Shown: positions 7,242 to 60,625, numbered from the stretch's first letter. The stretch is 64,000 bases of DNA from Vicinamibacterales bacterium (GCA_965249205.1 CBDFLL010000002.1:170810-234809), one strand, 5' to 3'. The notes: generated by a model from the letters alone, not told the origin. Translations and numbers: made by a program.

Positions 7242-8372
7242 CTACCCGAGGAGTTCGCTGTAGCACGCCTCGTACACAGGAACGACCCGATCGGCACAGA
7301 AATGTGTCCGCACCCGCTCGCAGGCGACCTTGGCGACACGCGCATGCAGGACTGGGTCGGTGAGCAGGCCGATGGCGCTCTCCGCCATGGGATCCAGTTG
7401 GTCCGGCGGATGCAGGAAGCCGGTGACCCCGTGCTCGATGACCTCGGGCAGCCCTCCGACCCGCGAAGCAACCACCGGCACCTCGCACGCCATGGCCTCC
7501 AACGCGGCCAGCCCGAAACTTTCCTGAGCGGAAGGGAGCAGAAAGAGGTCGCTCACCGAGAGCAACGGCACGATCTCTTCCTGCGCCCCCACGATGTCGA
7601 TCAGACCGGAGATGCCGAGTTCCCGAGCGACGCGATACGCCGTGCCCAACTCTGGTCCGTCCCCGACCAGCAGAAGCCTGGCGTGAACAGCCCGGCGAAT
7701 CCGGTCGAAAATCGCCAGCACCGCCTCGACGCGTTTCACCGGTCGAAAGTTGGATACGTGCGTGATGATTTTCACGTTGGGATCGTCGCCGCTGAAGCGC
7801 CGGCGAAGCTCCGGTGACACGTGCCGGCGATGCACGCTGCAATCCAGAAAGTTTGGAATCACGGCAATGTCACGCGTCACGCCAAGCTCCTCGCACGTGG
7901 CAGCCCGGAGACTCTCGGACACAGCGGTGACCCGGTCCGACTGTTCGATGGAGAACGCTACAATCTGGGAATATGAGGGGTCATTGCCGACCAGCGTGAT
8001 GTCGGTGCCGTGCAGCGTGGTGACGACGCGCGGTGCCGAGCCGCTCGACGCTAGCACCTGTCGCGACAGAAACGCGGCGGTCGCATGTGGCACCGCGTAG
8101 TGCGCGTGCACGACATCGAGACGGAACTCCCGCGACACCTCCACGATCTTGTTCGCGAGTGACAGGAGATACTGCGGCTCGCGAAACAGCGGATAGGTTG
8201 GGCTGAGCACCTGGTGAAACGCCAGGCCCGCCTGAAACTCTCCGAACCGGTACGGCATTTCGGTGCTGATGAAATGCACTTGATGTCCGCGGCGCGCCAA
8301 TGCCTTGCCCAGTTCAGTGGCGACGATGCCGCTGCCGCCAACCGACGCGTAACACACGAGACCGATATTCAT
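7242..8372 (-). CDS. bshA: N-acetyl-alpha-D-glucosaminyl L-malate synthase (GT4), bacillithiol biosynthesis
   Basis: [36 protein letters not shown] closely matches the BshA N-terminus. The ATG at 8372 overlaps the bshB1 stop (ATGA). Confidence 0.8.
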
Positions 8373-9151
8373 TGAGCGCCTTCGTTCGAGAGCAGACCGG
8401 GACGCTGACTCGTTGGCTGGCCGCAAGAATGGTCTGGCAGCAGGTGGGTGAGCACCACCGGGTCACGAACGACACACCCTTCGGCGAATGCAAAGCCAGC
8501 CTGCGCCCCGAATTGCGCATCGCGGCTCTCAATCAACTGCTGAAACCGCGAGCTCGTCGGTCGCGTCGCCACCGGGTCGGCGCCGGTGGGCCGGAACTGG
8601 CTGGCGTGGCACGCCAGCGCGCGCCGCTTCGTCTCGTAGTGGTCGCTCACATCGATCACAAAGGAGGGCGCCGCGGAATCGTTGATGAAGTAATAGCAGG
8701 TGACCTCCGGCTTCCACGCCGCGCCTTCAGCCGTGTAGCGCCGCAGGCCCGCGCTGAACACCGCTTCGGCGACCAGATGGCTGGCAGCGGCGTGATCCGG
8801 ATGCCGGTCGGACCAGTACGGCAGTGCCACGACACGGGGCCGCGCAAGCCGCACCAGTTCGGCAACCGTTCGAAGATGCAGAGGGTCACTGCCGATCGCG
8901 CGGTCAGGCAGCCGCAGGTTGGTCCGCCAGCGCGCGCCGAGTACCGCGCGGGCCGCCTCGGCCTCGGCCAGTCGCTCGTCGACAGTCCCGTTACTCCCCA
9001 TCTCGCCCGCGGTTAAATCGCACAGGCCGACGCTGTGTCCGAGCGCCGCATGCTTGGCGAGGATGCCGCCGCCGCCGATTTCTATGTCGTCGGGATGAGG
9101 ACCGAAGGCGAGCACATCGACGGCCTCCAGGGCCGGCGTCATCTGGTCCAA
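8369..9151 (-). CDS. bshB1: bacillithiol biosynthesis deacetylase (PIG-L/LmbE family)
   Basis: FGPHPDDIEIGGGG...GLCDLTAGEMGSNGTVDERLAEAEAA...NLRLPDRAI matches the BshB1/LmbE signature. Adjacent to and coupled with bshA. Confidence 0.8.
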   Translation of the reverse strand: MDQMTPALEAVDVLAFGPHPDDIEIGGGGILAKHAALGHSVGLCDLTAGEMGSNGTVDERLAEAEAARAVLGARWRTNLRLPDRAIGSDPLHLRTVAELVRLARPRVVALPYWSDRHPDHAAASHLVAEAVFSAGLRRYTAEGAAWKPEVTCYYFINDSAAPSFVIDVSDHYETKRRALACHASQFRPTGADPVATRPTSSRFQQLIESRDAQFGAQAGFAFAEGCVVRDPVVLTHLLPDHSCGQPTSQRPGLLSNEGAQ

Positions 9152-13022: not shown

Positions 13023-13357
13023 GCCCGCTGCCAGCGAGCCCCGACGCCAGCCGGCATTGTCGTCGCGAGTCTAGTTCGTGGCCGGCTTGAAGCGCTGCAC
13101 GCGCCGGCCCGTGCCCGATTCGGCCACGTAGAGATTGCCCTGGGAGTCGATGGCGAGGCCGTGCGCCACGGTGAAGTTACCAAGCTGGTGCCCGGGACGG
13201 CCGAACGACGAGAGAATCTCGCCGCTGGCATGGTCGAACACGTGGACCTGTTCGTGACGGCCGTCGAGGACGTAGAGGTAGCGTTGACCCTCGTCGCGCG
13301 AGAACGCGAGTCCCCACACGGTGCCCCGCGTATCGGGCAGGGATGCGTTACCCGTCT

Positions 13358-14401
13358 CGTGCTTATCCGGTTGTTTCAGCAAGCCACCACCGGTAGTGTA
13401 TCGGCGTGGCGCGCCCGTCGTTTCCGAAGAATCTCCGGGAGTTTCAGCGGCAATTTGCGACCGCCGAGGCCTGTCAGGACTACTTGGCGGCGTGCCGCTG
13501 GCCGGACGGCTTTGTGTGTCCCCGGTGCCGGCACGCGCGCGGCTATCGCCTGACCACACACCGGCGCTGGCAATGTGCGGCGTGCCGGTATCAGGTGTCG
13601 CTGACCGCCGGGACGATTCTCCACAACACGAAGACGCCGCTCCTGGTGTGGTTCTGGGCGGCCTATTTGACGGTTACCGACAAGCGGGGCCTCTCGGCGC
13701 TCCTGCTGCAGCGGCAGTTGGGCCTGCGGCGGTACGAAACGGCGTGGCTGCTGTTGCACAAGCTGCGGCGCGCGATGGTGAACGCGGGGCGGGAGCCCTT
13801 GTACGGCGACGTGGAGATCGATGACACCTGGGTGGGCGCGCCCCAGGCCGGCCTGCGCGGCAGTCGCCAACTCAAGGGGCGGAAAGCCGCGCTGGTGCTG
13901 GTGGCGGTGGAACGACGCGGGGATCGGTCGGGTCGGGTCCGCATGTCCGTGATCCCGAACTTCAAACAATCGACGATGCTCGCGTTCGTCACTCACCACA
14001 TTGCGCCGGGGGCGACGGTCTACACCGACGGGCTGAAAAGTTTCGATGGGCTCCAGGCCGCTGACGTGAGACACGTCGCCCGCCCGCAACCGATCCGGAG
14101 CGCCCTGCACAGGGGGGTGCCCTCCGTCGTGCCTTTGGCCGACCGCGTCATCGGCAATTGCCAACAGTGGTTGATTGGCACGCACCACGGCGTCAGCAAG
14201 GCGCAACTACAGGTCTACCTCGATGAGTTCGTGTTTCGGCACAATCGGCGGCGGCACCCGATGGCCGCCTTTCAGACCCTGCTGGGCCTGGGGACCGGAC
14301 GGACGCCCACGCCCGCCCGACGGATTCGCGGCGCGCAGGACGTGCGCCCCCCAGGCTGATCGCAAGATATAGGGGTTAGCTGAAACAACCGGATAAGCAC
14401 G
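13358..14401 (+). mobile_element. IS1595-family insertion sequence, copy 1 (1044 bp)
   Basis: 23-bp perfect terminal inverted repeats: CGTGCTTATCCGGTTGTTTCAGC ... GCTGAAACAACCGGATAAGCACG. Perfect 8-bp target duplication ACCCGTCT (13350-13357 and 14402-14409). Confidence 0.9.
13406..14359 (+). CDS. IS1595-family transposase
   Basis: 317 aa. N-terminal zinc ribbon (CPRCRH...WQCAACRYQ) and an IS1595-type DDE domain. Confidence 0.85.
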   Translation: MARPSFPKNLREFQRQFATAEACQDYLAACRWPDGFVCPRCRHARGYRLTTHRRWQCAACRYQVSLTAGTILHNTKTPLLVWFWAAYLTVTDKRGLSALLLQRQLGLRRYETAWLLLHKLRRAMVNAGREPLYGDVEIDDTWVGAPQAGLRGSRQLKGRKAALVLVAVERRGDRSGRVRMSVIPNFKQSTMLAFVTHHIAPGATVYTDGLKSFDGLQAADVRHVARPQPIRSALHRGVPSVVPLADRVIGNCQQWLIGTHHGVSKAQLQVYLDEFVFRHNRRRHPMAAFQTLLGLGTGRTPTPARRIRGAQDVRPPG

Positions 14402-15474
14402 ACCCGTCTTGACCCAGATGTTCCGGACGAACGCGCCCTCCTTGTCGAACACCTGAACGCGCAGCCCCTCGCGGTCACAGACGTACACGAGGCCTGCGTC
14501 GCTGATCGCAACACAGTGCAGGGAATAGGTGAAGGCGCCGCCAGTGCCGGCGTGAGTCTCGTCGAGCGTCGCCTGGCGGCCCCACTGACGCAGGAAATGG
14601 CCGTCCTTGTCGAAGACGGCGATGCGTTTGTTGCCGTAGCCGTCCGCGATGTAGGCATCGCCGTTGTCGGGATCGACTGCCACGCCAGCTGGGAAGAAGA
14701 ACCGGTCGTGGCCGGCATTCAACGGTTCGCGGTTGATGGAGTTGTCGGCCGCCCGAATCGCCGTGCCGTCGGACGTGTCGACGACGCCCTTGGTACCGAT
14801 CTGAAAGAGCAGCTCGCCCTCGTGCGTGTACTTCTGGGCAATGCCGTCGTTGTTGCCCACGACCCAGATGTTGTCGTCGGAGTCGAACGCGCAACCGTGG
14901 ATGCTGTCCGGTACGCGGGAGGCGTCGCCCCACGAGTTGACGAGGTTCCCGGCCGTGTCGAACAGCAGAATCGACGCAGCCGGCCTCGAGGTCTCGGCCT
15001 CCTCGTCGGTGATGTTCTGCCGGTCGAGAACCGCGATGTGGTCGTGCGAGTCGATGCACGGGTGTCCAAGCGTCGCGTTGATCCATCCGGTCGGCAGGGG
15101 ACCAGGCCAGGAGGGATCGACGTCGAATCGTGGTCCTTCCTGTGCGGCCAGCGGAAGTAGCAGTATCCAGCAAAGCGTCAATGAGGCGGCGCATGAGGCG
15201 GCAAGGGTCCGGTGCATGGTCGGTGTCCTCATGTGATTCGGCGACCGTCAATCGCAAGCCGCGAAGTCTGGCCGGTCGTTCGCGCCAAGCCTATCCCAGC
15301 CGAGCTCTCCTGCCGATCCGAATGCTCAACGGGGGTAGTGAGCCCCTCTTGATCCGAAAGTAGCCCACTACCCTCAGTGGAAGCCCATGCGCCTCGCCAG
15401 CGCGGGCGCCCTGTGGGCTAGCAGCCCCTCAAGATCTGCGTGACGCATCCGGGTGGGTCGCGTAAACTCGCCCC

Positions 15475-16524
15475 ATGAAACCGCATCTCGCCGTCACAAG
15501 TCTGGCGCTGGCTATGGCCGTCAGCGTCGCCTCAGTCAACATTGCGGCCCAGAGCCCCGGCGCGAGGGACTTCGACGAGGAAATCAGGGCCTCGCTGCAG
15601 GCGGCCAAACGGGCGGCCGGGTTCGAGTTCCTTGGCACGCTGGTGCGGACCTGTCTGCTGCCCCAGAGCGGCGGCGAGAACACAAGCGACAACCTGCCCC
15701 GGTACATCCGGGACCCCTCCAGCGTGGCGGCGCGCGACGCCTGGTACGCCGACTCCGCGAAGGTCTTCGACAACCTCTACTTCGTTGGCGGGAAGATCCA
15801 CTCATCCTGGGCGCTGACCACGAGCGACGGCATCATCATCATCGACACGATCTATCCGTACAACTCGGAAGAACTGATTGTGGGCGGCTTGACGCGGCTC
15901 GGCCTCGACCCTGAGAACATCAAGTACGTGATCATCGCCCACGCTCACGGCGACCACATCGGCGGCTCCGAGATGCTGCAGTCGCGCTACGGCGCGCAGG
16001 TTGTCATGGGTAGCGCCGACTGGGATCTCGTCGAGAAGTATCCAAATCGGTATCAGAGCATGGCGCCCAAGCGCGACGTCGTCGCGGCCGACGGCATGCA
16101 GATCACGCTCGGCGACACATCCGTGACCTTGTGGGAGACACCGGGCCACACGCCCGGCACGCTCTCGTTCACCTTCACCGCGCTGGACAACGGCAGGCCG
16201 GTCAACGTCGCGTATTCTGGTGGCACCGGCTTCAACTTCGTCAACAACACGCCGGATCCAGGCATTCGGAACTTCGACAGCTACATCGCGTCGCAACGCC
16301 ACATGGCCGCACAGGCTGCCGCCACGGGTGCGACGGTTCTGCTCTCGAATCACTCGGAGTTCGACAACGCGGTCAGCAAGAACCGCATGCTCGCCGGTCG
16401 CGGCGACGGTTCGCATCCGTACGAGGTCGGCGCTGACTGGGTCGCGAGATATTTTCAGGTTTTGGAAAACTGTGCCCGGGCGGCACAGCTCAGGCTGGAG
16501 CAGGAGCAGGCGAACCCACATTAG
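15475..16524 (+). CDS. MBL-fold metallo-hydrolase, secreted (B3-like HxHxDH motif)
   Basis: 349 aa. Signal peptide present, plus the HAHGDHIGG metal-binding motif. Confidence 0.75.
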   Translation: MKPHLAVTSLALAMAVSVASVNIAAQSPGARDFDEEIRASLQAAKRAAGFEFLGTLVRTCLLPQSGGENTSDNLPRYIRDPSSVAARDAWYADSAKVFDNLYFVGGKIHSSWALTTSDGIIIIDTIYPYNSEELIVGGLTRLGLDPENIKYVIIAHAHGDHIGGSEMLQSRYGAQVVMGSADWDLVEKYPNRYQSMAPKRDVVAADGMQITLGDTSVTLWETPGHTPGTLSFTFTALDNGRPVNVAYSGGTGFNFVNNTPDPGIRNFDSYIASQRHMAAQAAATGATVLLSNHSEFDNAVSKNRMLAGRGDGSHPYEVGADWVARYFQVLENCARAAQLRLEQEQANPH

Positions 16525-16600
16525 CCGACGGTAGCCGGCCCGCGACTCCGGAAGCACCGGGATCGTTCTACGCGGGTCGCGGCAAGACTGAAAGACGCCA

Positions 16601-16972
16601 ATGGCAGCAGACACCCCGCGCCACGACGACCTGCACGACCTCGTGGCCACCGCTCACCGGGATCGCGACCGGCGCGCCCGCAGCTATCGAGCCCGCGCGC
16701 TGCAGTTGTTTCCGCCTGTCTGCGGCGTGTGCGGCCGCGACTTCGCCGGGGCAAAGCTTCGCGAGCTCACCGTGCACCACAAGGATCACAACCACGACAA
16801 CAACCCACCGGACGGCAGCAATTGGGAGTTGCTCTGCGTCTACTGCCACGACAATGAGCACGGTCGAAAGGACGTCGCCGACGCGTATACAGGTTCGTCT
16901 GACGCGGACGCTCCGGCGCCGTCCACCTACCAGCCATTCGCCGGTCTCGACAAGCTGTTAAAGAAACCGTAG
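16601..16972 (+). CDS. yajD: YajD-family HNH nuclease-like protein
   Basis: LRELTVHHKDHNHDNNPPDGSNWELLCVYCHDNEH closely parallels E. coli YajD (LRELTVHHIDHDHTNNPEDGSNWELLCLYCHDHEH). Confidence 0.8.
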   Translation: MAADTPRHDDLHDLVATAHRDRDRRARSYRARALQLFPPVCGVCGRDFAGAKLRELTVHHKDHNHDNNPPDGSNWELLCVYCHDNEHGRKDVADAYTGSSDADAPAPSTYQPFAGLDKLLKKP

Positions 16973-16979
16973 TCAGGAC

Positions 16980-17237
16980 CCGGTTTCATAGCCTCCAGCC
17001 AGGTCCCGTCCGCGGACAGCCCCATTCGTGGCCAGATGTGTCACCGGCCATGAGCCGCGGCACCTCCTCTGCAAACCGGCTCCGCTCGCATCACAGACGG
17101 ATCCAGGAGGGAACATCTTGCCTCGCGTCGCGGCTGGCGCCAGCCCTACGGTTTGCGCCGGAGGTGCCGCGCCTCACAGCCGGTGGTAATCACTAAGCGG
17201 TGACTCGCGGCCACCCGCAACGAGATTATGAATCCGG
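16980..17237 (+). repeat. MITE-like repeat unit, left copy (~258 bp)
   Basis: The 183-nt core 17011-17193 equals the reverse complement of 20549-20731 with 5 mismatches (hand alignment). The unit has its own terminal inverted repeats: 16980-16995 against 17222-17237, 13/16. Confidence 0.8.
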
Positions 17238-20200
17238 CTACGCCTTAGGCCGCGGCCAATGGCGTGCCGCGGCTTCGGCGTCTTCCAGTTCTTCCTTGCG
17301 TCGCCAGTAGCCATGTTTCTTGATCAGCCGACGGGCTTCGGTCAGGTCATCGCGCGGACCGCGCGCGTGGCCGTTTGGATCTGCTGGACCGGCCACAGCA
17401 CTCAGATCGGTCGCCCACGGATACGGCGTGACGGCATGGAAGAGCCTCGCGCGGTAGAGATGGATGTCGGCGAGGAAGAGGGGCATGGGGCCGCGCTCGG
17501 CGATCTCCCAAGCCTCGTCCAGGTCATTCATCGTGCTCGCCTCACCCGCCACCGCCTGCGCCTCTTGGTTGAGAAGTCTCTGCCGTGTGGCTATCGCACA
17601 GGAGCACCAGGCGCGGGTGAAGAGGCCGCGGGGAAGCTCGTCGCTCTGTCCCGCGCGGCGGAGACCGTCCACGGCGGCGATAACCTCAGTCGCCGCGGAC
17701 GTGAGCCCAACTTGATCGTCCGCGGACTCGAGTATCAACCTGTAGAGCTTGGCGCGGCCCAGGGTCAGGTGGTCGAGAGCGATGCTGAGAAGCGCGTCGC
17801 TAGGAACTCGCCATTCGAACATCTTCGCACCGCGCGCGGCGACGGCGCGACAGGAGGCCACGCTCGTCGCCGCCGCCGACCGACTGTCAGCATCCGCCGC
17901 CTCTCGTCGGCTGCCCCCAAGCAGCATGTGCCACGCGCCACGCGCCGCCTCCATCAAGAGCAGCTCGCAATATCGGAAGCCCTGCACCGAATACAGCAAC
18001 GGGTATTGAGGCTGATTCTGGGCCTGCATTTTCTCGGCCTCGCGGAAGAGCGCTTCCGCCTCGGCCCGGCGGCCCGCATGGTGCAGGGCATCGGCATGGG
18101 TCGTGCGCTTGCCCATCCGCTGAAACGCATCGCCCGTGCGATCGGCGTAGGTAACGGACTGCTCGGCGTCCTCCACCGCCCCGGCCACGTCGCCCAGCGT
18201 CAGCTCCAGTTCGCTAAGGTTGCTGGCGCTGATGGCAGCGTTTGTCCAATCCTCCTGCTTGTCCATCAAGACAACCGTTGTCCGCATCGGTTCGACGGCC
18301 TCGGTTAACCGACCCAAGCCGCGCAGAAGCACGGCGGTTGTACCCAACAGGACCCCTTGGTCATTCTCTTTGAGTGAAGGCGAGACGCGGCTCCACGGGG
18401 TCTCGAAGAAGGAGGCGACGGCCCCAAGTTCGGAACCTAAGGCGCCGAGCTTCCTGGCGCTGTAGTAATTGTTCTGTTTGCGAATGCGTTCGAACCACAC
18501 CTTGTCATGCGCCTCCTGCTGCATCCCTGCTTGGCAGCCGTGGGCGACGGCCTGGTAGAGCGGTTGGAGGTCTTTGAGTGTGGGCTCGTCGCCTTCATTT
18601 GTGGTCGCGCAGAGGTGTTCGTAGAGCCGCCGGTGCGCGGCACGCCAGGCTTCGGGTTGCTCCTTCAGGACACGCCGGGCGAAGTATTCCCGAATGAGCG
18701 GATGCGAATCGAGCGCGACGAGGCTCTTGGCCGCATCACGGTTCACGGTGAGCAGCTTCGCCTCCTCGAGCCGGGTGAGCGCGATGTTCAACTGGCTTGG
18801 CGCAATCGACTTCTTTGCTACCGTGAAGAGCGCCTCGGTCAGACCTGGGATGACGGGGCCTGTCCACAGCGCCTCCAGGCAGTCGGCGGTGGCCGGGCGG
18901 TCGAACAGGCCGAGCAACCGCAGCAGAGCGACCGCGCGCCGGCCCTTCTGATTCTCTTCCCCGGTTTTCCCTCCGGTCTCGAGTGACTGCACATACGCAT
19001 CCATGACATGGAAGGCATGGCCGCCCTGCTCCTCCGCATCCGCCTCGTCGAGCTTCACGAGGTCGCGCCGACGAATGTCTCCGGCGTGGGCGTCGCGGAG
19101 GAACGTGCCGATCAGGTTGAGCGTCAGCGCGTGGCCCTTCACATCTGCGACGAGTGCCTCGAACTCCCTTTGACGCCCAACTACGCCGAGCGTCCTGAGT
19201 AGCGCCACGCCGGCTTCCGGCAACAACCGCAGGAGTACCTCCTCTGGCGCTGTCGTCTGCCAGTAGGCGCGCAAGTCCGGGATGGAATATCGCGTGGTGA
19301 CGACGCAGAGGCCGTTGCTGGTAGCGGCCAGCCCTTTGAGCACAGCGGCAAGGCCCTGGTCCTTCAGTTCGCCCGGCGTGGGAGAGGTGGGCGCGTATTG
19401 CAGCGGCTCCAGGCCATCCAAGATGAGCAGTGCCCGCCGTTCGCCGGCGAGCTGGGCGAGCCGCCGGCCCTTGTCGAACGCGCCAGCGCTACCCTCCGCC
19501 ATCTCCGCGTCGCCGAAGAACGTGAGCGCCTTGAGAAACAGGTCGGACGACACCGCCATCTGCTCCCGCGTGCCCTGGCTGTAGAAGGACCACGCAAACA
19601 CCGCATCGCACCCCGGCCAGTCCTGATGCGCCAGCTCCGCCGCCCACTTCGCCACGAGCGACGTTTTTCCCTCGCCCCCGAGTGCGACGAAGGTGAGAAT
19701 GTGCGGTCGCTTCGTCTCGCCGCGCACCGCCTTGTCCCAGGCGTTGGCAAGGAGCTTGGTCTCGGTCTCGCGACCGATAAGTTCCGATGGTGCGTATTTG
19801 ATGATGCGTAAGATATCGACCTTCGCCGTCTGAGTGGCGGATGTTTCGCCGAAGGTAAGCGCGGTCCCTTTTCGACGATGTCTGGGCTTGAGCGCGCCGA
19901 CCGGAAGCGGCTCCACACCTGCCCGCTCCAGCAACAAATCGTAAAGGCGCTGGTAGTTACTCTCAGAGGTCAGGGAGTAGTGGCTGACCGAACGCATCGG
20001 CTCTGGGATCCAATCCTCAGTGGCGGCAGACAAGAACACCGGCACAAACTTCAGCGTATTACTGCGACTGCCGTAGATTTCTTGGGTGATGAGGGCACCC
20101 TCCCAATCGACGCCCTTGCCCTTACCGAGTTTTTCATGCCCGCGGAATCGGCGGTAGTAGGTTTCGGTGCAGACGACAAGAACGGAGCCCGCGGCATCGA

Positions 20201-20369
20201 GTTGATCGAGCATCCAGCGCGGCCAGCCCTGCTGGGGTGCGCCGTTCACGTACTGGTCAAGGAGAGTCTCGATGCCGTCCTGGCGCAGCCGTTCGGAGAG
20301 CGCAAGCACTTGTTTACTATGCTCGACGGAATCGTGGCTGTAGCTGATGAAGACCGTGTTCTGTTTCAT
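17238..20369 (-). CDS. SEFIR/TIR - NB-ARC (STAND ATPase) - TPR protein, NLR-like
   Basis: 1043 aa. N-terminus: TVFISYSHDS...VLVVCTETYY...KFVPVFL. NB-ARC motifs in order: Walker A GGEGKTS (231-237), Walker B LLILDGLE (314-321), TTR (358-360) and GHALTL (412-417). The C-terminal ~500 aa are helical repeats. Confidence 0.8.
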   Translation of the reverse strand: MKQNTVFISYSHDSVEHSKQVLALSERLRQDGIETLLDQYVNGAPQQGWPRWMLDQLDAAGSVLVVCTETYYRRFRGHEKLGKGKGVDWEGALITQEIYGSRSNTLKFVPVFLSAATEDWIPEPMRSVSHYSLTSESNYQRLYDLLLERAGVEPLPVGALKPRHRRKGTALTFGETSATQTAKVDILRIIKYAPSELIGRETETKLLANAWDKAVRGETKRPHILTFVALGGEGKTSLVAKWAAELAHQDWPGCDAVFAWSFYSQGTREQMAVSSDLFLKALTFFGDAEMAEGSAGAFDKGRRLAQLAGERRALLILDGLEPLQYAPTSPTPGELKDQGLAAVLKGLAATSNGLCVVTTRYSIPDLRAYWQTTAPEEVLLRLLPEAGVALLRTLGVVGRQREFEALVADVKGHALTLNLIGTFLRDAHAGDIRRRDLVKLDEADAEEQGGHAFHVMDAYVQSLETGGKTGEENQKGRRAVALLRLLGLFDRPATADCLEALWTGPVIPGLTEALFTVAKKSIAPSQLNIALTRLEEAKLLTVNRDAAKSLVALDSHPLIREYFARRVLKEQPEAWRAAHRRLYEHLCATTNEGDEPTLKDLQPLYQAVAHGCQAGMQQEAHDKVWFERIRKQNNYYSARKLGALGSELGAVASFFETPWSRVSPSLKENDQGVLLGTTAVLLRGLGRLTEAVEPMRTTVVLMDKQEDWTNAAISASNLSELELTLGDVAGAVEDAEQSVTYADRTGDAFQRMGKRTTHADALHHAGRRAEAEALFREAEKMQAQNQPQYPLLYSVQGFRYCELLLMEAARGAWHMLLGGSRREAADADSRSAAATSVASCRAVAARGAKMFEWRVPSDALLSIALDHLTLGRAKLYRLILESADDQVGLTSAATEVIAAVDGLRRAGQSDELPRGLFTRAWCSCAIATRQRLLNQEAQAVAGEASTMNDLDEAWEIAERGPMPLFLADIHLYRARLFHAVTPYPWATDLSAVAGPADPNGHARGPRDDLTEARRLIKKHGYWRRKEELEDAEAAARHWPRPKA

Positions 20370-20509
20370 GACTGCTGCAGTAATCCGGTCACTATAGCCG
20401 AGCTACTGAATCGTCTGGAATCAGCGCAGCGAATACTGATCTGCCTCCCCTGCTCTTGCGTGAGTTGATGAGGCGAAGCGGGTGGCGCTTGGCGCCAAGG
20501 AGACCCTTC

Positions 20510-20772
20510 TTCATAACCTCGTCGCGATTGGCCGCGATTCACCGCCTGGTGATCACCACCGGCTGTGAGGCGCGGCACCTCCGGCGCAAACCGCAGGGCT
20601 GGCGCCAGCCGCGACGCGAGGCAAGATGTTCCCTCCTGGATCCGTCTGTGATGCGAGCGGAGCCGGTTTGCAGAGGAGATGCCGCGCCTCATGGCCGGTG
20701 ACACATCTGGGCACGAATGGGGCTGTCCGCGGTCTTCCGCGGACAGGACCCGCCTGGAGGTTATGAATCCGG
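20510..20772 (-). repeat. MITE-like repeat unit, right copy (inverted relative to the left copy)
   Basis: Perfect 11-bp terminal inverted repeats TTCATAACCTC (20510-20520) and GAGGTTATGAA (20757-20767). The core 20549-20731 is ~97% identical to the left copy. Confidence 0.8.
20723..20746 (-). terminator. hairpin just downstream of the purK stop (candidate terminator, no U-tract)
   Basis: Perfect 10-bp stem CTGTCCGCGG / CCGCGGACAG with a 4-nt loop, 28 nt from the purK stop. It lies inside the right repeat unit. Confidence 0.4.
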
Positions 20773-20773
20773 T

Positions 20774-21907
20774 TTAGATCAGCAGCGCGTCGCGCGCACC
20801 GACGACGAGGTCCTGCGCCTCGTTGACTGTCGCGCCGACCGCTGTCAGATGCCCCATCTTCCGCCCCGGTCGGGGGTTGGTCTTGCCGTAAAGGTGCAGC
20901 TTGACGTCGGCGAACCGGAAGGCAGCCGCCCAGTTCGGCTCGCCGTCCACCCAGAGGTCGCCAAGCAGGTTCGCCATCGCGGCCGGGCGCGGGATCTCCG
21001 CCGACCCAAGCGGGAGACTACACACGGCGCGCACCTGCTGCTCGAACTGGCTGGTCACGGCAGCGTCGATCGTGAGGTGGCCGGAGTTATGGGGCCGCGG
21101 GGCCAGCTCGTTGACCAGCAGGTCGCCATCGGTGCTGACGAAGAACTCGACACACAGCACACCGACGTACTGCAGCTCTTCGAGAATCGTCCGCGTGATG
21201 TCGTTCGCCTGTGTCACCACGGCCGGTGGGATCGCGGCCGGCACAGTCGTGACATCGAGGATGTGATCGCGATGGCGGTTCTCGAATGGTAAGTACATGG
21301 CGATCTCGCCGTCGCCGCCCCGGGCGGCGATGATCGAGATCTCTGCCTGCAGGCTGATGAACTTTTCCACGACCGCCGCCTGGTGACCGATGGCGGTCCA
21401 GATAGGTTCTACGTCGGCCGGCGTCGCGACCTTGTGCTGCCCCTTGCCATCGTACCCAAAGGCGGCGGTCTTGATGACGGCGGGCGTTCCGACGCGGGCC
21501 ACCGCGTCCCATAACTCGTCAAAACTCTCGGCGGACGCAAACGGTACCGTCGGCACTCCGCGGTCCGCGAGAAACGTCTTCTCGCGGGCACGCTGCTGAG
21601 CGATGTGCAGCGCGACGCCAGACGGGCAGACCGGCACGAGTGCCTCCACGGCGTCGATCGCCTCGGTCGGGATGTTCTCGAACTCGAACGTGACCACGTC
21701 CACGCCGCGCGCGAACGTGCGCACCGCATCGAGGTCAGCATACGGTGCGCTCACCTCCAGGTCGGCGATCTGTCCTGCAGGTGAGTCGTCTTCGGGAGAA
21801 AACGTGTGGACGCGGTAGCCCATTCGCCTGGCGGCCATCGCGAACATGCGCCCAAGCTGGCCGCCCCCGAGCAGGCCCAGGGCCGCGCCCGGCGCCACGC
21901 GCGTCAC
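20774..21907 (-). CDS. purK: 5-(carboxyamino)imidazole ribonucleotide synthase
   Basis: ATP-grasp sequence [24 protein letters not shown]. The GTG at 21907 overlaps the purE stop (GTGA). The 493-aa track ORF carries an Arg-rich shadow extension across purE. Confidence 0.9.
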
Positions 21908-22389
21908 GGCAGCGGTACCTGCCGTACTTTCTCGGTCTGCTGGTCGCGAAAGGCGCGGAGCTTCGCCCTCAGATCCGGGCGTGAGTTGGACAGAATGGAG
22001 ACGGCAAGGAGCCCCGCGTTGGTCGAGCCTGGCTTGCCAATGGCCAACGCGCCCACTGGGATGCCGCCCGGCATCTGGGCAATCGAGAGCAGGGAGTCGA
22101 GACCCTTGAGCGCCGCGCTCTCGACAGGCACGCCGAGGACCGGCACGACAGTCAATGCGGCGACCATACCGGGCAGGTGCGCCGCGCCGCCGGCGCCGGC
22201 GATGATGACCTCGACGCCGCTGGCTTCGGCGCCCGTTGCAAACTCGGCCATCCACGCCGGTGTCCGGTGAGCCGATACGATATGGCGCTCGTAGGGCACC
22301 TCAAAGCGGTCGAGCACGTCGACCGCATGTTTCATCGTCTCCCAGTCGGATAACGACCCCATGACGACGGCGACGAGCGGCTCTGCCAT
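21904..22389 (-). CDS. purE: 5-(carboxyamino)imidazole ribonucleotide mutase
   Basis: 161 aa. [17 protein letters not shown]...SAHRTP...[14 protein letters not shown] are the classic PurE motifs. Confidence 0.95.
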
Positions 22390-25472: not shown

Positions 25473-25573
25473 TACGAAAAGTATTCCTGGAAGGCGTAGA
25501 GCGCTGTGAGCGCAACCACCCAGAGGATCAACACGCGTGCGTAGCTATGGCGGGTGTCGGGCTCGGTCGTCAT
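25472..25573 (-). CDS. 33-aa single-TM small protein, translationally coupled between the M61 peptidase and the symporter
   Basis: Hand translation: MTTEPDTRHSYARVLILWVVALTALYAFQEYFS*. Its ATG overlaps the M61 stop (ATGA). Its TAG overlaps the symporter GTG by 1 nt. Confidence 0.4.
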   Translation of the reverse strand: MTTEPDTRHSYARVLILWVVALTALYAFQEYFS

Positions 25574-27420
25574 GACCCGGGCTGGAGCCACCGGTCGCGC
25601 TGCTGCTGCTGCGCGTCGGCGTTGGCCGGATCGACCTCGAGCTGCCACTCCTGCGGCGGCTCGGCGCCCAGGACCGCGTCGATCGTCCGCAATGCATCGC
25701 GTCGCGCCACGAGCAACGCCACGGCGGCGCCCGGCCGATACTGACCAAGCCTCGCGGCCAACTGGTCGGCGCGCACCCGGAAACCGTTCATCGCCAGGAT
25801 TTCGTCGTCCACGTTGAGACCGGCCTCAAATGCCGGCGTCCCGCGACGCACCTGGGTCACGACCAGCCGGCCATCGACGTTTCGCGTCGACATGCCAAGC
25901 CATGCGGGCCGAGGCCGATCGTCACGCGGCTCGTCGACGGGTCGGAACCGCAATCCGAACGCCTCGAGCGCCTCGCCGTACTCCAGTTCGGCAGTGCCCT
26001 CGATCGCGCCGTCCCAGAACAACGCGAGGCTCAGACCGCTCACCTGCTCCACCACGGCGCGGAACTCATCTGGCGTGAACCCGCGATCGCCGGAAAACCG
26101 CTCGAACGCCGTACGCATCACGTCGTCCAGGCTCCTGGCGCCTGATGTCGCCGCGCGGATCCGGCCATCCAGGAGGAATCCCAGCACGGCGCCCTTTGTG
26201 TAGTAGCTGACCGACGCGTTGACGCTGTGCTCGTCTTGGCGGTAGTAATTGATCCACGCGTCGAAGGAGGCCTCCTCCACCGACTGCACGAGCCGCCCCG
26301 GTGTCGTTTGCAGCCCCCTGATGCGGCTCGACAGCGCGTCGAGCAGCTCCGCGCGCGTCGACAGGCCGGCCCGATGGAGGGCCAACTCTCCGTAGTAGTC
26401 AGTCAACCCCTCGACCATCCAGAGGCTGCGCGTATGGACCTCGTCCTCGTAGTTGAACGGGCCCAGTTCGACCGGACGCAGTCGCTTGATGTTCCAGGCG
26501 TGGAAGAGCTCGTGACTCGCCAAGCCCAGCCAGGCGAGATACGCCCTTCTCGTGCCGGTGGCCCAGCGATTGGACATCAGCATCGTGGAGTTCTTGTGCT
26601 CCAGCCCGCCGCCACCACTCGTGGCCAAGGTCAGCATGTTGAGGAACACGAACTTGTCGTACGGCAAGGCGCCCCACATACGGCGATGCTCCCGGACGAC
26701 GAGCTCTAGATCTCTCGCCGCGCGAGCCCCGTCGAACACGCCGTCTTCGCCGACGTTCGCCAGGACATGTCTCTTGTCATCAACGGTGAACTCGTAGACG
26801 GCCGGATTGCCGATCACGATGGGCGAATCGACCAACGTGTCGAAATCAGGTGCCTGGTACCGATGGCTGCCCCCAGGGATCTCGGCCAGGCCGGTCACCG
26901 AGGCCTGCCAGCCTGGCGCCGGCTGAATGACCACCTCGTGCGGACGCCCCAGCCCATCCACCAGCGTCATGAACGTCGGGGCGCCATTCAACATCGCGAA
27001 GTCGGCTTCGACCCAATTGGTGCGCACGCTCATCTCGCGCGCGTATACGCGATAGCGCACCTCGACGGATGGCGCACCGCCAGTGGCAACCCGCCAGCGG
27101 TTCTTGTCGGACTTGGCGACCGCAAGCGCGCGCCCATCGACGCCGCTGGCGGTCACGGCCTCAACCTGCCGCGCGTACTCCCTCACCAGGTACGAACCCG
27201 GTGTCCAAACAGCCATCATCAGCTCTACCTCCGACCGCCCATCGGTCGGCACCACGACGCTCACCTCGACGTAGTGCGTCTGCGGCTCGGGAAAGCTGAC
27301 GGTGTAGCGAATGGGATCGGATCCGGGATCGGGCGCGGTCTCCGCGGAGGCAGAAAGAGGACTATGCATCATGAAAACAACCAGCAAGAGCGCGGGGATT
27401 CTTGCGACCATGGGATGCAT
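25570..27420 (-). CDS. M61 family metallopeptidase with C-terminal PDZ domain
   Basis: HELFHAWN zinc motif. The start is taken at MHPMVARIPALLLVVF (signal peptide); the track start at 27459 is an upstream GTG. Confidence 0.85.
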   Translation of the reverse strand: MHPMVARIPALLLVVFMMHSPLSASAETAPDPGSDPIRYTVSFPEPQTHYVEVSVVVPTDGRSEVELMMAVWTPGSYLVREYARQVEAVTASGVDGRALAVAKSDKNRWRVATGGAPSVEVRYRVYAREMSVRTNWVEADFAMLNGAPTFMTLVDGLGRPHEVVIQPAPGWQASVTGLAEIPGGSHRYQAPDFDTLVDSPIVIGNPAVYEFTVDDKRHVLANVGEDGVFDGARAARDLELVVREHRRMWGALPYDKFVFLNMLTLATSGGGGLEHKNSTMLMSNRWATGTRRAYLAWLGLASHELFHAWNIKRLRPVELGPFNYEDEVHTRSLWMVEGLTDYYGELALHRAGLSTRAELLDALSSRIRGLQTTPGRLVQSVEEASFDAWINYYRQDEHSVNASVSYYTKGAVLGFLLDGRIRAATSGARSLDDVMRTAFERFSGDRGFTPDEFRAVVEQVSGLSLALFWDGAIEGTAELEYGEALEAFGLRFRPVDEPRDDRPRPAWLGMSTRNVDGRLVVTQVRRGTPAFEAGLNVDDEILAMNGFRVRADQLAARLGQYRPGAAVALLVARRDALRTIDAVLGAEPPQEWQLEVDPANADAQQQQRDRWLQPGS

Positions 27421-27525
27421 TCTATAGAAACCGGCCGCGAAGGTGCTCGGCCCGGGCACAGCGGGCAGCGATTGATCGGGGTCGTCGGTACTGGTCGATT
27501 GCCTCTCTGGGCAGAGGGGCGTCAG
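27396..27525 (-). repeat. ~130-bp direct repeat, copy A (M61 5' region plus a relic TPR-gene 3' end)
   Basis: Two well-conserved blocks against 29366-29496: 42 bp at 37/42 and 33 bp at 29/33. The middle of the repeat is only weakly conserved. Confidence 0.75.
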
Positions 27526-41466: not shown

Positions 41467-42510
41467 CGTGCTTATCCGGTTGTTTCAGCAAGCCACCACC
41501 GGTAGTGTATCGGCGTGGCGCGCCCGTCGTTTCCGAAGAATCTCCGGGAGTTTCAGCGGCAATTTGCGACCGCCGAGGCCTGTCAGGACTACTTGGCGGC
41601 GTGCCGCTGGCCGGACGGCTTTGTGTGTCCCCGGTGCCGGCACGCGCGCGGCTATCGCCTGACCACACACCGGCGCTGGCAATGTGCGGCGTGCCGGTAT
41701 CAGGTGTCGCTGACCGCCGGGACGATTCTCCACAACACGAAGTCGCCGCTCCTGGTGTGGTTCTGGGCGGCCTATTTGACGGTTACCGACAAGCGGGGCC
41801 TCTCGGCGCTCCTGCTGCAGCGGCAGTTGGGCCTGCGGCGGTACGAAACGGCGTGGCTGCTGTTGCACAAGCTGCGGCGCGCGATGGTGAACGCGGGGCG
41901 GGAGCCCTTGTACGGCGACGTGGAGATCGATGACACCTGGGTGGGCGCGCCCCAGGCCGGCCTGCGCGGCAGTCGCCAACTCAAGGGGCGGAAAGCCGCG
42001 CTGGTGCTGGTGGCGGTGGAACGACGCGGGGATCGGTCGGGTCGGGTCCGCATGTCCGTGATCCCGAACTTCAAACAATCGACGATGCTCGCGTTCGTCA
42101 CTCACCACATTGCGCCGGGGGCGACGGTCTACACCGACGGGCTGAAAAGTTTCGATGGGCTCCAGGCCGCTGACGTGAGACACGTCGCCCGCCCGCAACC
42201 GATCCGGAGCGCCCTGCACAGGGGGGTGCCCTCCGTCGTGCCTTTGGCCGACCGCGTCATCGGCAATTGCCAACAGTGGTTGATTGGCACGCACCACGGC
42301 GTCAGCAAGGCGCAACTACAGGTCTACCTCGATGAGTTCGTGTTTCGGCACAATCGGCGGCGGCACCCGATGGCCGCCTTTCAGACCCTGCTGGGCCTGG
42401 GGACCGGACGGACGCCCACGCCCGCCCGACGGATTCGCGGCGTGCAGGACGTGCGCCCCCCAGGCTGATCGCAAGATATAGGGGTTAGCTGAAACAACCG
42501 GATAAGCACG
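41467..42510 (+). mobile_element. IS1595-family insertion sequence, copy 2 (1044 bp)
   Basis: Same ends as copy 1. I found only 2 substitutions against copy 1: A13634/T41743 and C14334/T42443. The flanking 8-mers match only 6/8 (AGGCGACC left, AGGCGAGG right). Confidence 0.9.
41515..42468 (+). CDS. IS1595-family transposase
   Basis: 317 aa, differing from copy 1 at 2 residues (T->S, A->V). Confidence 0.85.
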   Translation: MARPSFPKNLREFQRQFATAEACQDYLAACRWPDGFVCPRCRHARGYRLTTHRRWQCAACRYQVSLTAGTILHNTKSPLLVWFWAAYLTVTDKRGLSALLLQRQLGLRRYETAWLLLHKLRRAMVNAGREPLYGDVEIDDTWVGAPQAGLRGSRQLKGRKAALVLVAVERRGDRSGRVRMSVIPNFKQSTMLAFVTHHIAPGATVYTDGLKSFDGLQAADVRHVARPQPIRSALHRGVPSVVPLADRVIGNCQQWLIGTHHGVSKAQLQVYLDEFVFRHNRRRHPMAAFQTLLGLGTGRTPTPARRIRGVQDVRPPG

Positions 42511-43876: not shown

Positions 43877-45799
43877 CTAGGGTGCGGGCGAGTTCAGCCA
43901 GGCATCTCGAAACTGCCGCTGGCCTGCCGTCAGCGTCTGGCCCGCATCCTCGGCCCGCACGATTTCGATCTCGGGGCGCTCAGCGAGTCGCAGCACGCTG
44001 GTGACCCGCTCTCCGCGACGCTCGAACACCAGCGCAACCTCGTCGCCCGGCGCGCGCCCATCGATCGCTCGACCGAAGTCGGCGGCACTGGTAACACCCA
44101 GGCCCGCGACCGCCAGGATCACGTCATCCCGCTCAAGACCCGCCAGATACGCCGGCGAGCCGAACCGCACGGCCCCCGCCACGCGCGGTCTGCCCTGCGC
44201 ATCCTGAAGTCTGAGCTCTCCTGCGAACGCGCGAGCCGGGAACACCCGTCGAAGCAGGAGTCCCGCACGCGCGAGCAGCGGTTCATAGTTCACAACCTCG
44301 TGGCCCTGGACGTACCGCGCGAAAAACTCGTCCGCGAACGCCGCGTCGCCGGACACGACGGCGAGTGCCTGCCTGAGGTCGGCCATCGTGTACGGACGGT
44401 CGACATAGCCGGGCTGGCTGCCACCAGGTTTGCCATGGGCTTCCCAGAGCGCGCGCATGTAGTCGTCGAGGGTGACCTGGCCGTCGGTCCGATCGCGAAG
44501 CGTGAGATCCAGGCCGAGCCCAATCGCGGCGCCCCACGTGTAGTACGAGATGAACGTGTTGTCGACGCTGGTCCGATCGATCGGAGCGGCGGCGTCGACA
44601 AACGGCGCGAATCGGCTCATCTCCTCCGCGCTTCGCAGGCTGCGACCCGGACTCATCTGCACGCGGTTGATGTTCGACGCCAGCCCGGCCAGATAATCGC
44701 CCGTGTCGCGCAGGCCGGCGCGGTGGATGATGAGCGGCCCGTAGTAGCTGGTAAACCCCTCGGCCAGCCACAGCTCACCGGACATGTTGGCGCGCTCGAA
44801 ATCGAACGGCTCGAGCGATCGTGGACGGATGCGCTCCACATTCCACGCGTGAAAGAACTCGTGCGCCGCCGTGTCGAGAAGGCCTGCCCGGTTGGTGCGG
44901 ATTGAGCTGGCGCTGGTCAGAATCGTGCTGTTCCGATGTTCCATGCCGTCGCCGTTTGCCCTTGGCAGGTAATCGGCGATAAAGGTATAGGCGTTGCCGT
45001 CAAACGACGGGTACTCGCCATACACGTGTCGGGCCTCCCGGACGATCCGTTCCACGTCCGCGGCAAAGCCGTCGAGGTCACCGTCCGTGCCTGCATGGTG
45101 CACGACGAGACGGACCACCGGAGACGCGGGTGCGTCCTCCAGCGTGAACGTCCGCAGACTGAAGTCGCTGAACTCGGTCGGGCTGTCCATGAGGTACTGC
45201 AGATTCGGCGCGGTGAACGTCCCCGCCTCGTCACCCGGCACGAGTTGCGTCCCCACGCGCCAATCGGCGCCGCTGGGCGCCTCGAACTGAAGAGTGACCG
45301 GCCGGTCGTCGAAACCACGGGCCCACATGAGCGCCGCCGGCATGTTGATGTGCGCGTGCGTACTGTCGACCGCGAGATACGTACCATCTATGCGGTCGCC
45401 AAAAATTCGGTATGACACACGTACCGTGCTGGCATCTCCAGCAACGCTCCACGCATGCGGGTCCGGCCGCGTGACCGGCAGTGCAATACCCTCGCCGTCA
45501 GTGACTTGCACATCAAAGACATTCTTGGCGAACTCGTGTAATGCGTAGCGTCCCGGCGAGGATCGGCTCATGCGAAGTTCAAGCGGTCCCGCCGGAACGT
45601 CACGAAAAGTGATCGCCACATCCATCAACCGGTGTTCCGGCTCGCTGAATGACAGCCGGTACTCTACGGGCGCCTGGGCTGCGGCGAGTGCCGGTATGCC
45701 CAGGAGGCACAGGAGTACTAGCAGCGAGCAGGCGCGGCGTGTCGGAGGTAGGCGTTTGACGGACGGCCCTGGTTCGAAACAGCGTGTCATTGCGAGCAT
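43877..45799 (-). CDS. M61 family metallopeptidase with PDZ domain (paralogue)
   Basis: 640 aa with a signal peptide, an HEFFHAWN zinc motif and a C-terminal PDZ domain. Confidence 0.85.
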   Translation of the reverse strand: MLAMTRCFEPGPSVKRLPPTRRACSLLVLLCLLGIPALAAAQAPVEYRLSFSEPEHRLMDVAITFRDVPAGPLELRMSRSSPGRYALHEFAKNVFDVQVTDGEGIALPVTRPDPHAWSVAGDASTVRVSYRIFGDRIDGTYLAVDSTHAHINMPAALMWARGFDDRPVTLQFEAPSGADWRVGTQLVPGDEAGTFTAPNLQYLMDSPTEFSDFSLRTFTLEDAPASPVVRLVVHHAGTDGDLDGFAADVERIVREARHVYGEYPSFDGNAYTFIADYLPRANGDGMEHRNSTILTSASSIRTNRAGLLDTAAHEFFHAWNVERIRPRSLEPFDFERANMSGELWLAEGFTSYYGPLIIHRAGLRDTGDYLAGLASNINRVQMSPGRSLRSAEEMSRFAPFVDAAAPIDRTSVDNTFISYYTWGAAIGLGLDLTLRDRTDGQVTLDDYMRALWEAHGKPGGSQPGYVDRPYTMADLRQALAVVSGDAAFADEFFARYVQGHEVVNYEPLLARAGLLLRRVFPARAFAGELRLQDAQGRPRVAGAVRFGSPAYLAGLERDDVILAVAGLGVTSAADFGRAIDGRAPGDEVALVFERRGERVTSVLRLAERPEIEIVRAEDAGQTLTAGQRQFRDAWLNSPAP

Positions 45800-48918: not shown

Positions 48919-49011
48919 TGGCGGTGAGGCAGGGATTCGAACCCTGGGTAGGGGTTTAAGCCCTACAACGGTTTAGCAAACCGCCGCCTTCAGCCTCTCG
49001 GCCACCTCACC
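48919..49011 (-). tRNA. tRNA-Ser (anticodon GCU)
   Basis: Hand-folded 93 nt. Acceptor GGTGAGG/CCTCACC, anticodon loop TTGCTAA, long variable arm GTAGGG/CCCTAC, T-arm CAGGG-TTCGAAT-CCCTG, encoded CCA. Confidence 0.9.
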
Positions 49012-60551: not shown

Positions 60552-60625
60552 TGGGAGGTCGTTCAACGGTAGGACACCTGCCTCTGGAGCAGGTTATCGG
60601 GGTTCGAATCCCTGCCTCCCAGCCA
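60552..60625 (+). tRNA. tRNA-Gln (anticodon CUG)
   Basis: Hand-folded 74 nt. Acceptor TGGGAGG/CCTCCCA, anticodon stem CCTGC/GCAGG with loop CTCTGGA, T-loop TTCGAAT, encoded CCA. Confidence 0.9.

Follow-up and report, generated by a model that had tools for sequence, protein, structure and literature searches.

A 64,000-nucleotide stretch of DNA from a Vicinamibacterales bacterium (GCA_965249205.1 CBDFLL010000002.1:170810-234809; the whole stretch analyzed is called the window here) raises the question of what a single large gene, lodged between purK and an HNH gene, does for its host. The gene is complete (17238..20369, minus strand), starts with ATG and encodes 1043 amino acids plus a stop codon, and its product consists of a SEFIR domain, a STAND NTPase and a TPR-like solenoid. 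An earlier note, made from the sequence alone, had proposed an NLR-like single-gene module of SEFIR/TIR, NB-ARC and TPR parts and named it a candidate anti-phage sensor. The computational tests support that proposal in outline, with corrections to the NB-ARC and TIR labels, to the description of a cassette and to the claim of novelty. Judged by analogy with characterized systems, the product probably acts alone as an NLR-like (STAND) anti-phage receptor, destroying NAD+ so that the infected cell is killed or arrested. This reading is supported by a match of the head to the bSEFIR profile, by exchangeable heads on a common body, by the lack of partner genes and by an accessory, polymorphic locus.

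The open reading frame (ORF) is real and intact according to the ORF list and the translation, and the motifs quoted earlier lie where they had been placed: TVFISYSHDS... at residues 5-39, SVLVVCTETYY at 62-72, LKFVPVFL at 106-113, GVDWEG with E90, GGEGKTS at 231-237, LLILDGLE at 314-321, TTR at 358-360 and GHALTL at 412-417. K235, D318, E321, R360, H413 and H556 do not vary among the 51 sequences of a family alignment. The full-length AlphaFold2 (AF2) model has a predicted local distance difference test score (pLDDT) of 81.6 and a predicted template modeling score (pTM) of 0.71. The head of the protein (residues 1-146; 19932..20369, minus strand like all other parts of the gene) is a SEFIR domain, not a canonical TIR domain, and is predicted to be an NAD+-cleaving effector with E90 as the candidate catalytic glutamate. 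Two of the profile families suggested for checking match over residues 5-138, Pfam SEFIR (PF08357, STIR clan; cut-off 23 bits) at 58.6 bits and TIR_2 at 37.4 bits. The PADLOC bSEFIR model matches with E=4e-42 and covers only residues 1-171 of 1043, corresponding to model positions 35-212 of 412. When the family profile was compared with PDB sequences, BcSEFIR of Bacillus cereus (5y8e, 1.8e-16) and the human Act1 SEFIR domain (9e-7) were recovered, and no other informative PDB sequence was found. Foldseek searches with an AF2 model of residues 1-180 (pLDDT 78) placed Act1, IL-17RA and BcSEFIR at ranks 1-7 and IL-17RB at rank 13, with the TIR NADases SARM1, SPARTA and AbTir from rank 8 onward. 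The SEFIR half of the proposed SEFIR/TIR label therefore stands on profile, sequence and fold, and the canonical TIR half falls, since SEFIR outscores TIR_2 and outranks the TIR domains in fold. Within the domain D38 is invariant and E90 is kept in 50 of the 51 aligned family sequences. A low-confidence linker follows (residues 147-185; 19815..19931; pLDDT <50 at residues 150-179) and ends in a conserved D-I-S-R-I junction.

The middle of the protein is a STAND NTPase, a label that is safe without assignment to a clade. The nucleotide-binding domain (NBD; residues 186-378; 19236..19814) carries the Walker A motif GGEGKTS (19659-19679), the Walker B motif LLILDGLE (19407-19430) and the sensor-1 TTR. 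It is followed by helical domain 1 (HD1; residues 379-448), which holds the GxP-like motif GHALTL, and a winged-helix domain (WHD; residues 449-572), the two spanning 18654..19235; the invariant His556 in LDSHPLIREY occupies the MHD-like position of the WHD. The AF2 topology is NBD-HD1-WHD and then an all-helical solenoid to residue ~1035. The best Foldseek match is an archaeal STAND-TPR protein (6mfv, 3.8e-12), followed by Apaf-1, CED-4 and ZAR1, with Avs3 and NLRPs lower. Sub-threshold Pfam matches were obtained for NACHT (19.6 bits, cut-off 26.7) and AAA_16 (21.5 bits), and none for NB-ARC (PF00931) at E<=1. Among the matches listed for 120 homologues, a precomputed PF00931 match occurs in one and precomputed NACHT matches in about 10, and a tandem paralogue at locus L088 exceeds the Pfam NACHT threshold at 29.3 bits. 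The Walker B motif reads D318-G319-L320-E321, not hhhhDD, and its D-G-x-E form is invariant in the family alignment. Leipe et al. in 2004 reportedly described hhhhDD at the kinase-2/Walker B position as a mark of AP-ATPases, and Koonin and Aravind in 2000 are said to have defined NACHT by a tiny residue after the Walker B aspartate and an acidic one two further on. D318-G319-x-E321 is of this NACHT type. Motifs and fold thus bear out the STAND NTPase behind the NB-ARC claim, and the NB-ARC label itself is not confirmed, for want of a PF00931 match and because of the D-G-x-E Walker B. Affinity with Apaf-1 and CED-4 is favored by the fold search only, and the clade of the NTPase is not settled by sequence because the comparison of the family profile with PDB sequences found no STAND protein.

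The C-terminal part (residues 573-1043; 17241..18653) is a TPR-like alpha-solenoid, presumed to be the ligand sensor, within which residues 601-900 (17670..18569) form a hypervariable sensor segment. In the AF2 model the solenoid consists entirely of helical repeats with high pLDDT, and Foldseek finds it to resemble the TPR part of 6mfv and the TPR subunits of APC/C. Pfam reports TPR_12 (19.8 bits, cut-off 30.1), TPR_10 (17.3 bits) and DUF3856 below threshold. The TPR-like helical repeats that had been seen at the C-terminus are confirmed as a helical solenoid with fold matches to TPR proteins, and 'TPR-like solenoid' is the accurate term because the TPR profiles remain sub-threshold, yet the region is all-helical and matches TPR proteins in fold.

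The protein belongs to a large family, the full-length sequence having more than 4000 homologues, the best 120 listed being 56-80% identical to it and nearly all full length. Relatives are encoded by at least 534 species-representative genomes, nearly all of them metagenome-assembled genomes (MAGs), from Acidobacteriota, Proteobacteria, Verrucomicrobiota, Planctomycetota, Bacillota and other phyla. The nearest homologue in a named genome comes from a Vicinamibacterales MAG (69% identity). Many family copies in MAGs are split into two or three ORFs by frameshifts or assembly errors. A search with residues 181-1043 alone, referred to here as the chassis, returned 6,768 clusters at 50% identity, of which 2,696 had E<1e-30. 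Proteins that carry various heads are 40-73% identical to the chassis, their Walker A motif lies 0 to 913 residues from the N-terminus, and the N-termini of the top matches fall into ~27 unrelated groups. The heads comprise SEFIR (31), DUF4062 (21), TIR_2 (15), Cap4-like nuclease (7) and PNP_UDP_1, metallophosphatase and SMEK_N (3 each), together with cyclase-like, HTH, CHAT, trypsin-like, Mrr_cat and protein kinase domains and several of unknown type. Every head is fused to the chassis at the D-I-S-R-I junction, and ~60% of the heads are NADase-type domains of the TIR superfamily. Such exchange of heads on one chassis is a signature of immune STANDs. The full-length family was not found in plasmid or phage collections, where only SEFIR heads on other proteins were seen. 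A homologue search that started from the BcSEFIR crystal sequence brought up short stand-alone SEFIR proteins only. The mobilizable plasmid p057_F of Nostoc sp. C057 (L172, 5910-10544) encodes a 1544-residue SEFIR protein with a different STAND-like NTPase, which gives weak nSTAND, NACHT and AAA_16 matches. Short SEFIR/TIR genes are also present on Escherichia coli conjugative plasmids and in Klebsiella and E. coli phage records.

Close relatives of the window show that the gene is polymorphic. Five metagenome contigs (L001-L005) with flanks 97-99% identical to those of the window carry, at exactly the same place, an allele that is 80% identical (P0002). DNA identity between the two alleles is 63-74% in the part that encodes residues 601-900 and 85-96% in the rest of the gene. 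Synonymous divergence (dS) from these relatives is 0.03-0.05 in the distant flanks, 0.13-0.28 in purE, purK, the HNH gene and a metallo-beta-lactamase-fold (MBL) gene, 0.25-0.33 in most of the STAND gene and about 1.0 at residues 601-800. Across the whole sensor segment dS is 0.5-1.0 and amino acid identity 62-65%. In this segment the syntenic allele (63%) is no closer than family members from other phyla (62-63%), whereas outside it the syntenic allele is clearly the closest (86-88%). The two alleles are thus much older than the surrounding genome, and the sensor segment has been replaced or has diverged beyond recognition. Over the whole gene dS is 0.40 and the ratio of nonsynonymous to synonymous divergence (dN/dS) 0.31; the ratio remains at 0.2-0.47 throughout, which indicates purifying selection, and the STAND gene is therefore functional. 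Two somewhat more distant relatives differ in content at the slot between purK and the HNH gene. In L091 (1547-1628) the slot is empty, the HNH gene follows 80 bp after purK and only a 65-nt hairpin is present, and in L092 (1058-3937) it is filled by an unrelated, surface-protein-like gene of 959 residues with HYR/TSP3 repeats. The STAND gene is accessory at this slot. In a separate comparison of window positions 15475-22389 with L004, dS was 0.28 in purE, 0.13 in purK, 0.27 in the HNH gene and 0.15 in the MBL gene, 3-8 times that of the outer genes; this rise around the gene resembles what an old haplotype, or a recombination tract with the gene at its center, would leave.

The statement that the gene has no helper genes was upheld, no neighbor family being present in more than 6 of the 78 loci with flanks; recurrences in up to 6 loci trace to syntenic Pyrinomonadaceae genomes. 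The neighbor that does recur is another family member, placed in tandem (L006, L007, L013, L067, L078 and L088). These tandem paralogues are arranged head-to-tail, some with overlapping stop and start codons. Annotated surroundings vary among the loci, and some relatives lie among mobile or toxin-antitoxin genes, including ParE/Phd and PemK toxin-antitoxin pairs and ISL3 around L086, and DruA, IS66 and a group II intron around L089. Searches of 131 neighbor ORFs with PADLOC gave MADS (mad3, mad8), AriA, DRT and CARF matches, and a control set of 68 ORFs around purK gave PtuA-like and QatD-like matches.

A course of action can be proposed for such a receptor, each step of it drawn by analogy from validated SEFIR defense, Avs biochemistry (PMC13581612) and TIR NADase structures. 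At rest, the TPR-like solenoid would be folded back on the ADP-bound NTPase and the protein would be monomeric. A phage protein would bind the solenoid, with the variable residues 601-900 probably setting specificity, and binding would lift autoinhibition. The NBD-HD1-WHD module would then exchange or bind nucleotide through K235, D318/E321, R360 and H556, and the protein would oligomerize. Oligomerization would gather the SEFIR domains into a composite NADase site in which E90 is the candidate catalytic residue, NAD+ would be split into ADP-ribose and nicotinamide, and replication of the phage would abort. The final step has a precedent in bSEFIR, a single-gene defense in which SEFIR-mediated NAD+ depletion is established (Millman et al., 2022), the expected products being ADP-ribose plus nicotinamide. 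The same receptor could act differently at its head, the SEFIR domain producing a signaling nucleotide or serving as a homotypic adaptor that recruits a further SEFIR or TIR protein whose gene lies elsewhere. In eukaryotes SEFIR domains function as adaptors, and the best fold matches of the head are to Act1 and IL-17RA/RB assemblies; bacteria commonly have short SEFIR proteins that stand alone, some TIR systems signal instead of depleting, and Yang et al. reportedly proposed protein-protein interaction roles for bacterial SEFIR domains. A signaling or recruiting head is nevertheless quite improbable, given that no conserved partner gene lies beside the family, the sole tested bacterial SEFIR depletes NAD+, the replacement heads are mostly self-sufficient enzymes (NADases, nucleases, PNP, proteases) and E90 is nearly invariant.

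An NAD+-destroying receptor of this kind has several known counterparts. Like bSEFIR (PADLOC PDLC03957), the protein has an N-terminal SEFIR domain that scores higher with the SEFIR than with the TIR profile and is encoded by a single gene without partners. It differs from bSEFIR in its 860 C-terminal residues, STAND and solenoid, which match nothing in PADLOC. Avs, or AVAST, systems were reportedly described by Gao et al. in 2022. The main text of a later report on receptors of the effector-STAND-TPR type recognizes 589 clades, 198 of them defense-associated, and maps triggers for Avs7-21 (Lee et al., 2026, PMC13581612); SEFIR is unmentioned in that main text. With Avs and other defense STANDs the protein shares the order of effector, STAND and TPR-like sensor, the interchangeable heads and the single-protein format, and by analogy its expected mode would be to recognize a phage protein directly and then to oligomerize. 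Unlike Avs proteins, it has no profile match to the PADLOC Avs models, and its fold resembles that of Avs3 only weakly (rank 18, TM 0.16). bNACHT proteins (Kibby et al., 2023, preprint) have in common with it the Walker B D-G-x-E, and a tandem paralogue of the protein passes Pfam NACHT; the protein itself is below the NACHT gathering score, has no PADLOC bNACHT match, and places Apaf-1 and CED-4 above NLRPs in fold. The three-part logic, in which a STAND switch links a head of death or TIR type to a repeat sensor, is that of Apaf-1, CED-4 and the plant TIR-NB-ARC-LRR receptors, as are the GxP-like GHALTL and the winged-helix histidine, and their nucleotide-binding and oligomerization modules are matched in Foldseek with E of 2e-10 to 1e-7. 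Points of difference are the lack of an NB-ARC match and of hhhhDD, a TPR-like instead of a WD40 or LRR sensor, and the SEFIR head. DUF4062 is a TIR-like NADase in Swarozyc defense, where it is activated by the phage portal (PMC13174449), and siblings up to 63% identical in the chassis bear DUF4062 in place of SEFIR; the present protein differs from Swarozyc in its head domain. The best structural match over the nucleotide-binding and TPR parts together is the PH0952-type archaeal STAND (6mfv; 3.8e-12, 862 aligned columns), which shares 13% identity and is without an effector head. To our knowledge the 6mfv protein is not known as a defense protein.

The earlier note had overstated the novelty of the system, as SEFIR-mediated NAD+ depletion and effector-STAND-TPR receptors are both already established. 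Because both halves of the mechanism are established, no new concept is opened, and the protein is a well-supported candidate that is unsurprising to a specialist. If the proposed function is true, a SEFIR NADase head would be tied to a STAND switch within one protein, a bacterial counterpart of plant TIR-NLRs with an IL-17/Act1-type SEFIR head. A very large clade would gain a function as well; it is encoded in at least 534 species genomes, comprises thousands of protein clusters and dominates in soil and water Acidobacteriota, Verrucomicrobiota, Planctomycetota and Proteobacteria, groups whose defense systems have hardly been tested. A natural specificity-swap experiment is provided by the pair of deeply diverged alleles that share one syntenic site.

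A number of observations weigh against an anti-phage receptor. The window is ordinary housekeeping and chromosomal DNA with no defense island, and several homologues lie in unremarkable neighborhoods, for example L087. Defense enrichment near the family is only suggestive, the PADLOC comparison with the purK controls being not rigorously scorable. At a cut-off as loose as E<=10, neither the chassis nor two siblings that bear a DUF4062 or TIR head on it match any of the 5,027 models of PADLOC-DB v2, those for Avs and bNACHT among them. Conservation across phyla reaches 60-70% over much of the solenoid; this exceeds what many immune sensors show and might reflect a conserved ligand, a recent horizontal transfer or a ligand unrelated to immunity. 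E90 is a candidate catalytic glutamate only by virtue of its conservation. In agreement with the earlier note, no experimental work on a SEFIR-STAND-TPR protein was found in the literature, nor any experiment on the clade, its trigger or its NADase activity. Several of these points would also suit a STAND switch that responds to a cue other than phage, such as self stress or damage, another mobile element or conflict with kin or competitors, and leads to dormancy or programmed death. In the STAND tree, defense and non-defense clades are intermingled (PMC13581612), housekeeping genes surround the gene, its solenoid is highly conserved across phyla, and family members abound in Acidobacteriota, Verrucomicrobiota and Planctomycetota of soil and freshwater. 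The head repertoire, on the other hand, is that of anti-phage systems; presence/absence polymorphism, deep allelic divergence and swapping of the sensor segment are hallmarks of host-parasite conflict, and the protein has no DNA-binding output domain. A non-phage cue is considered unlikely.

How the gene came to its slot is a separate matter, on which the flanking DNA bears. The gene lies between two copies of an inverted repeat, one upstream (20510..20772), which is palindromic and begins 1 nt past the purK stop codon, and one downstream (16980..17237), which is inverted, begins right after the stop codon of the gene itself and ends 7 nt from the HNH stop codon. The arms measure 258-263 nt; their similarity is 90% over the full length and 95% in the central 223 nt. 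Both copies carry CCGGATTCATAA-type ends and each folds as a long hairpin, with RNA folding energies of -148 kcal/mol (z = -6.8) upstream and -141.5 kcal/mol (z = -5.5) downstream. These are the only two copies in the 64-kb window, where none is expected by chance. The same arrangement is shared by L001-L005. The downstream copy of these relatives has a 108-nt insertion in its central loop (L002 13234-13342) that is not in the window copy. The 65-nt hairpin in the empty slot of L091 equals the outer ~30 nt of each repeat copy joined together, and either the repeat unit grew from or inserted into such a palindrome or L091 holds a minimal derivative. Searches for a transposase in the repeat-bounded unit and for a target-site duplication found none, the flanks CAGGAC and TTTAGA being different, and Rfam gave no known RNA family at the flanking repeats. 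Comparable flanking repeats occur in 0 of 60 other family loci, and the repeat itself is not in any other fetched locus. The repeat-bounded cassette described earlier is therefore real as a pair of inverted repeats (16980-17237 and 20510-20772) and fails as a feature of the family, being lineage-specific and without transposase or target-site duplication.

On this evidence the gene might be no more than cargo of a non-autonomous mobile element with 258-nt terminal inverted repeats, kept by spread and not by selection on its function. The position of the repeats hard against the purK stop codon and that of the gene itself, the hairpin left from the two outer repeat ends in the gene-less L091 and a slightly low G+C content at third codon positions (GC3) are all in keeping with cargo. 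Against it stand the missing transposase and target-site duplication, the restriction to two copies in 64 kb, the absence of the repeat from the 60 other family loci and from other fetched loci, the purifying selection on the gene, and an additional repeat copy in L001 that proved to be a local tandem duplication. Cargo is a doubtful explanation for these reasons, and it bears on how the gene arrived, not on what it does. A bolder and likewise doubtful conception takes the 3.8-kb unit 16980-20772 as a non-autonomous immune-gene cassette, one defense gene between 258-nt terminal inverted repeats. Such a cassette would insert into, or grow from, a palindromic terminator between convergent housekeeping genes; its old alleles would be held by balancing selection, and new specificities would arise by swaps of residues 601-900 with distant family members. 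If true, it would be a new vehicle for single-gene defense systems in uncultured soil phyla. Two candidate signs of mobility were rejected. The extra repeat copy in L001 had been considered as transposition and is a ~510-bp local tandem duplication, and the nearby IS1595 element had been considered as the mobilizer of the unit and has 29-nt inverted repeats that are unrelated.

The immediate setting of the gene is as the earlier note had it: purE (21904-22389, minus strand) and purK (20774-about 21913, minus strand) lie upstream in the same orientation, and from downstream an HNH (YajD-like) gene (16601-16972) converges on it. The third codon positions of the gene had been described as richer in A/T than those of its neighbors, which is true and a small effect (GC3 0.775, against 0.80-0.85 in 10 neighbor genes; 0.72 in the SEFIR part). 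Between the upstream repeat and the ATG lies an untranslated stretch of 140 nt (20370..20509, minus strand), conserved in relatives and presumed to be the gene's own promoter region, with TATAGT ~21 nt before the ATG. A consensus promoter scan found no promoter-like site, so that a promoter in this stretch is a presumption, and a terminator scan found no more terminator-like sites than in shuffles. Past the HNH gene lie the MBL gene, an NHL-repeat gene, an IS1595 insertion and a penicillin amidase gene, and the remaining window contains an RND efflux operon, M61 peptidases, QueG and glycosyltransferases. In relatives ~270 nt separate purE and purK (L004 about 8200-8470), whereas in the window the two ORFs abut or overlap (21876-21906). 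The IS1595-family element (13357-14402), between the penicillin amidase and NHL genes, has 29-nt inverted ends and a 317-residue transposase (13406-14359) and is missing from the same spot in the syntenic relatives L002-L004; a second 317-residue ORF with the same layout as this transposase is found at 41515-42468. Two paralogous M61 glycyl-aminopeptidase genes with PDZ domains (25570-27459 and 43877-45799) lie 18 kb apart, and tRNA genes are located at 48922-49011 and 60552-60622.

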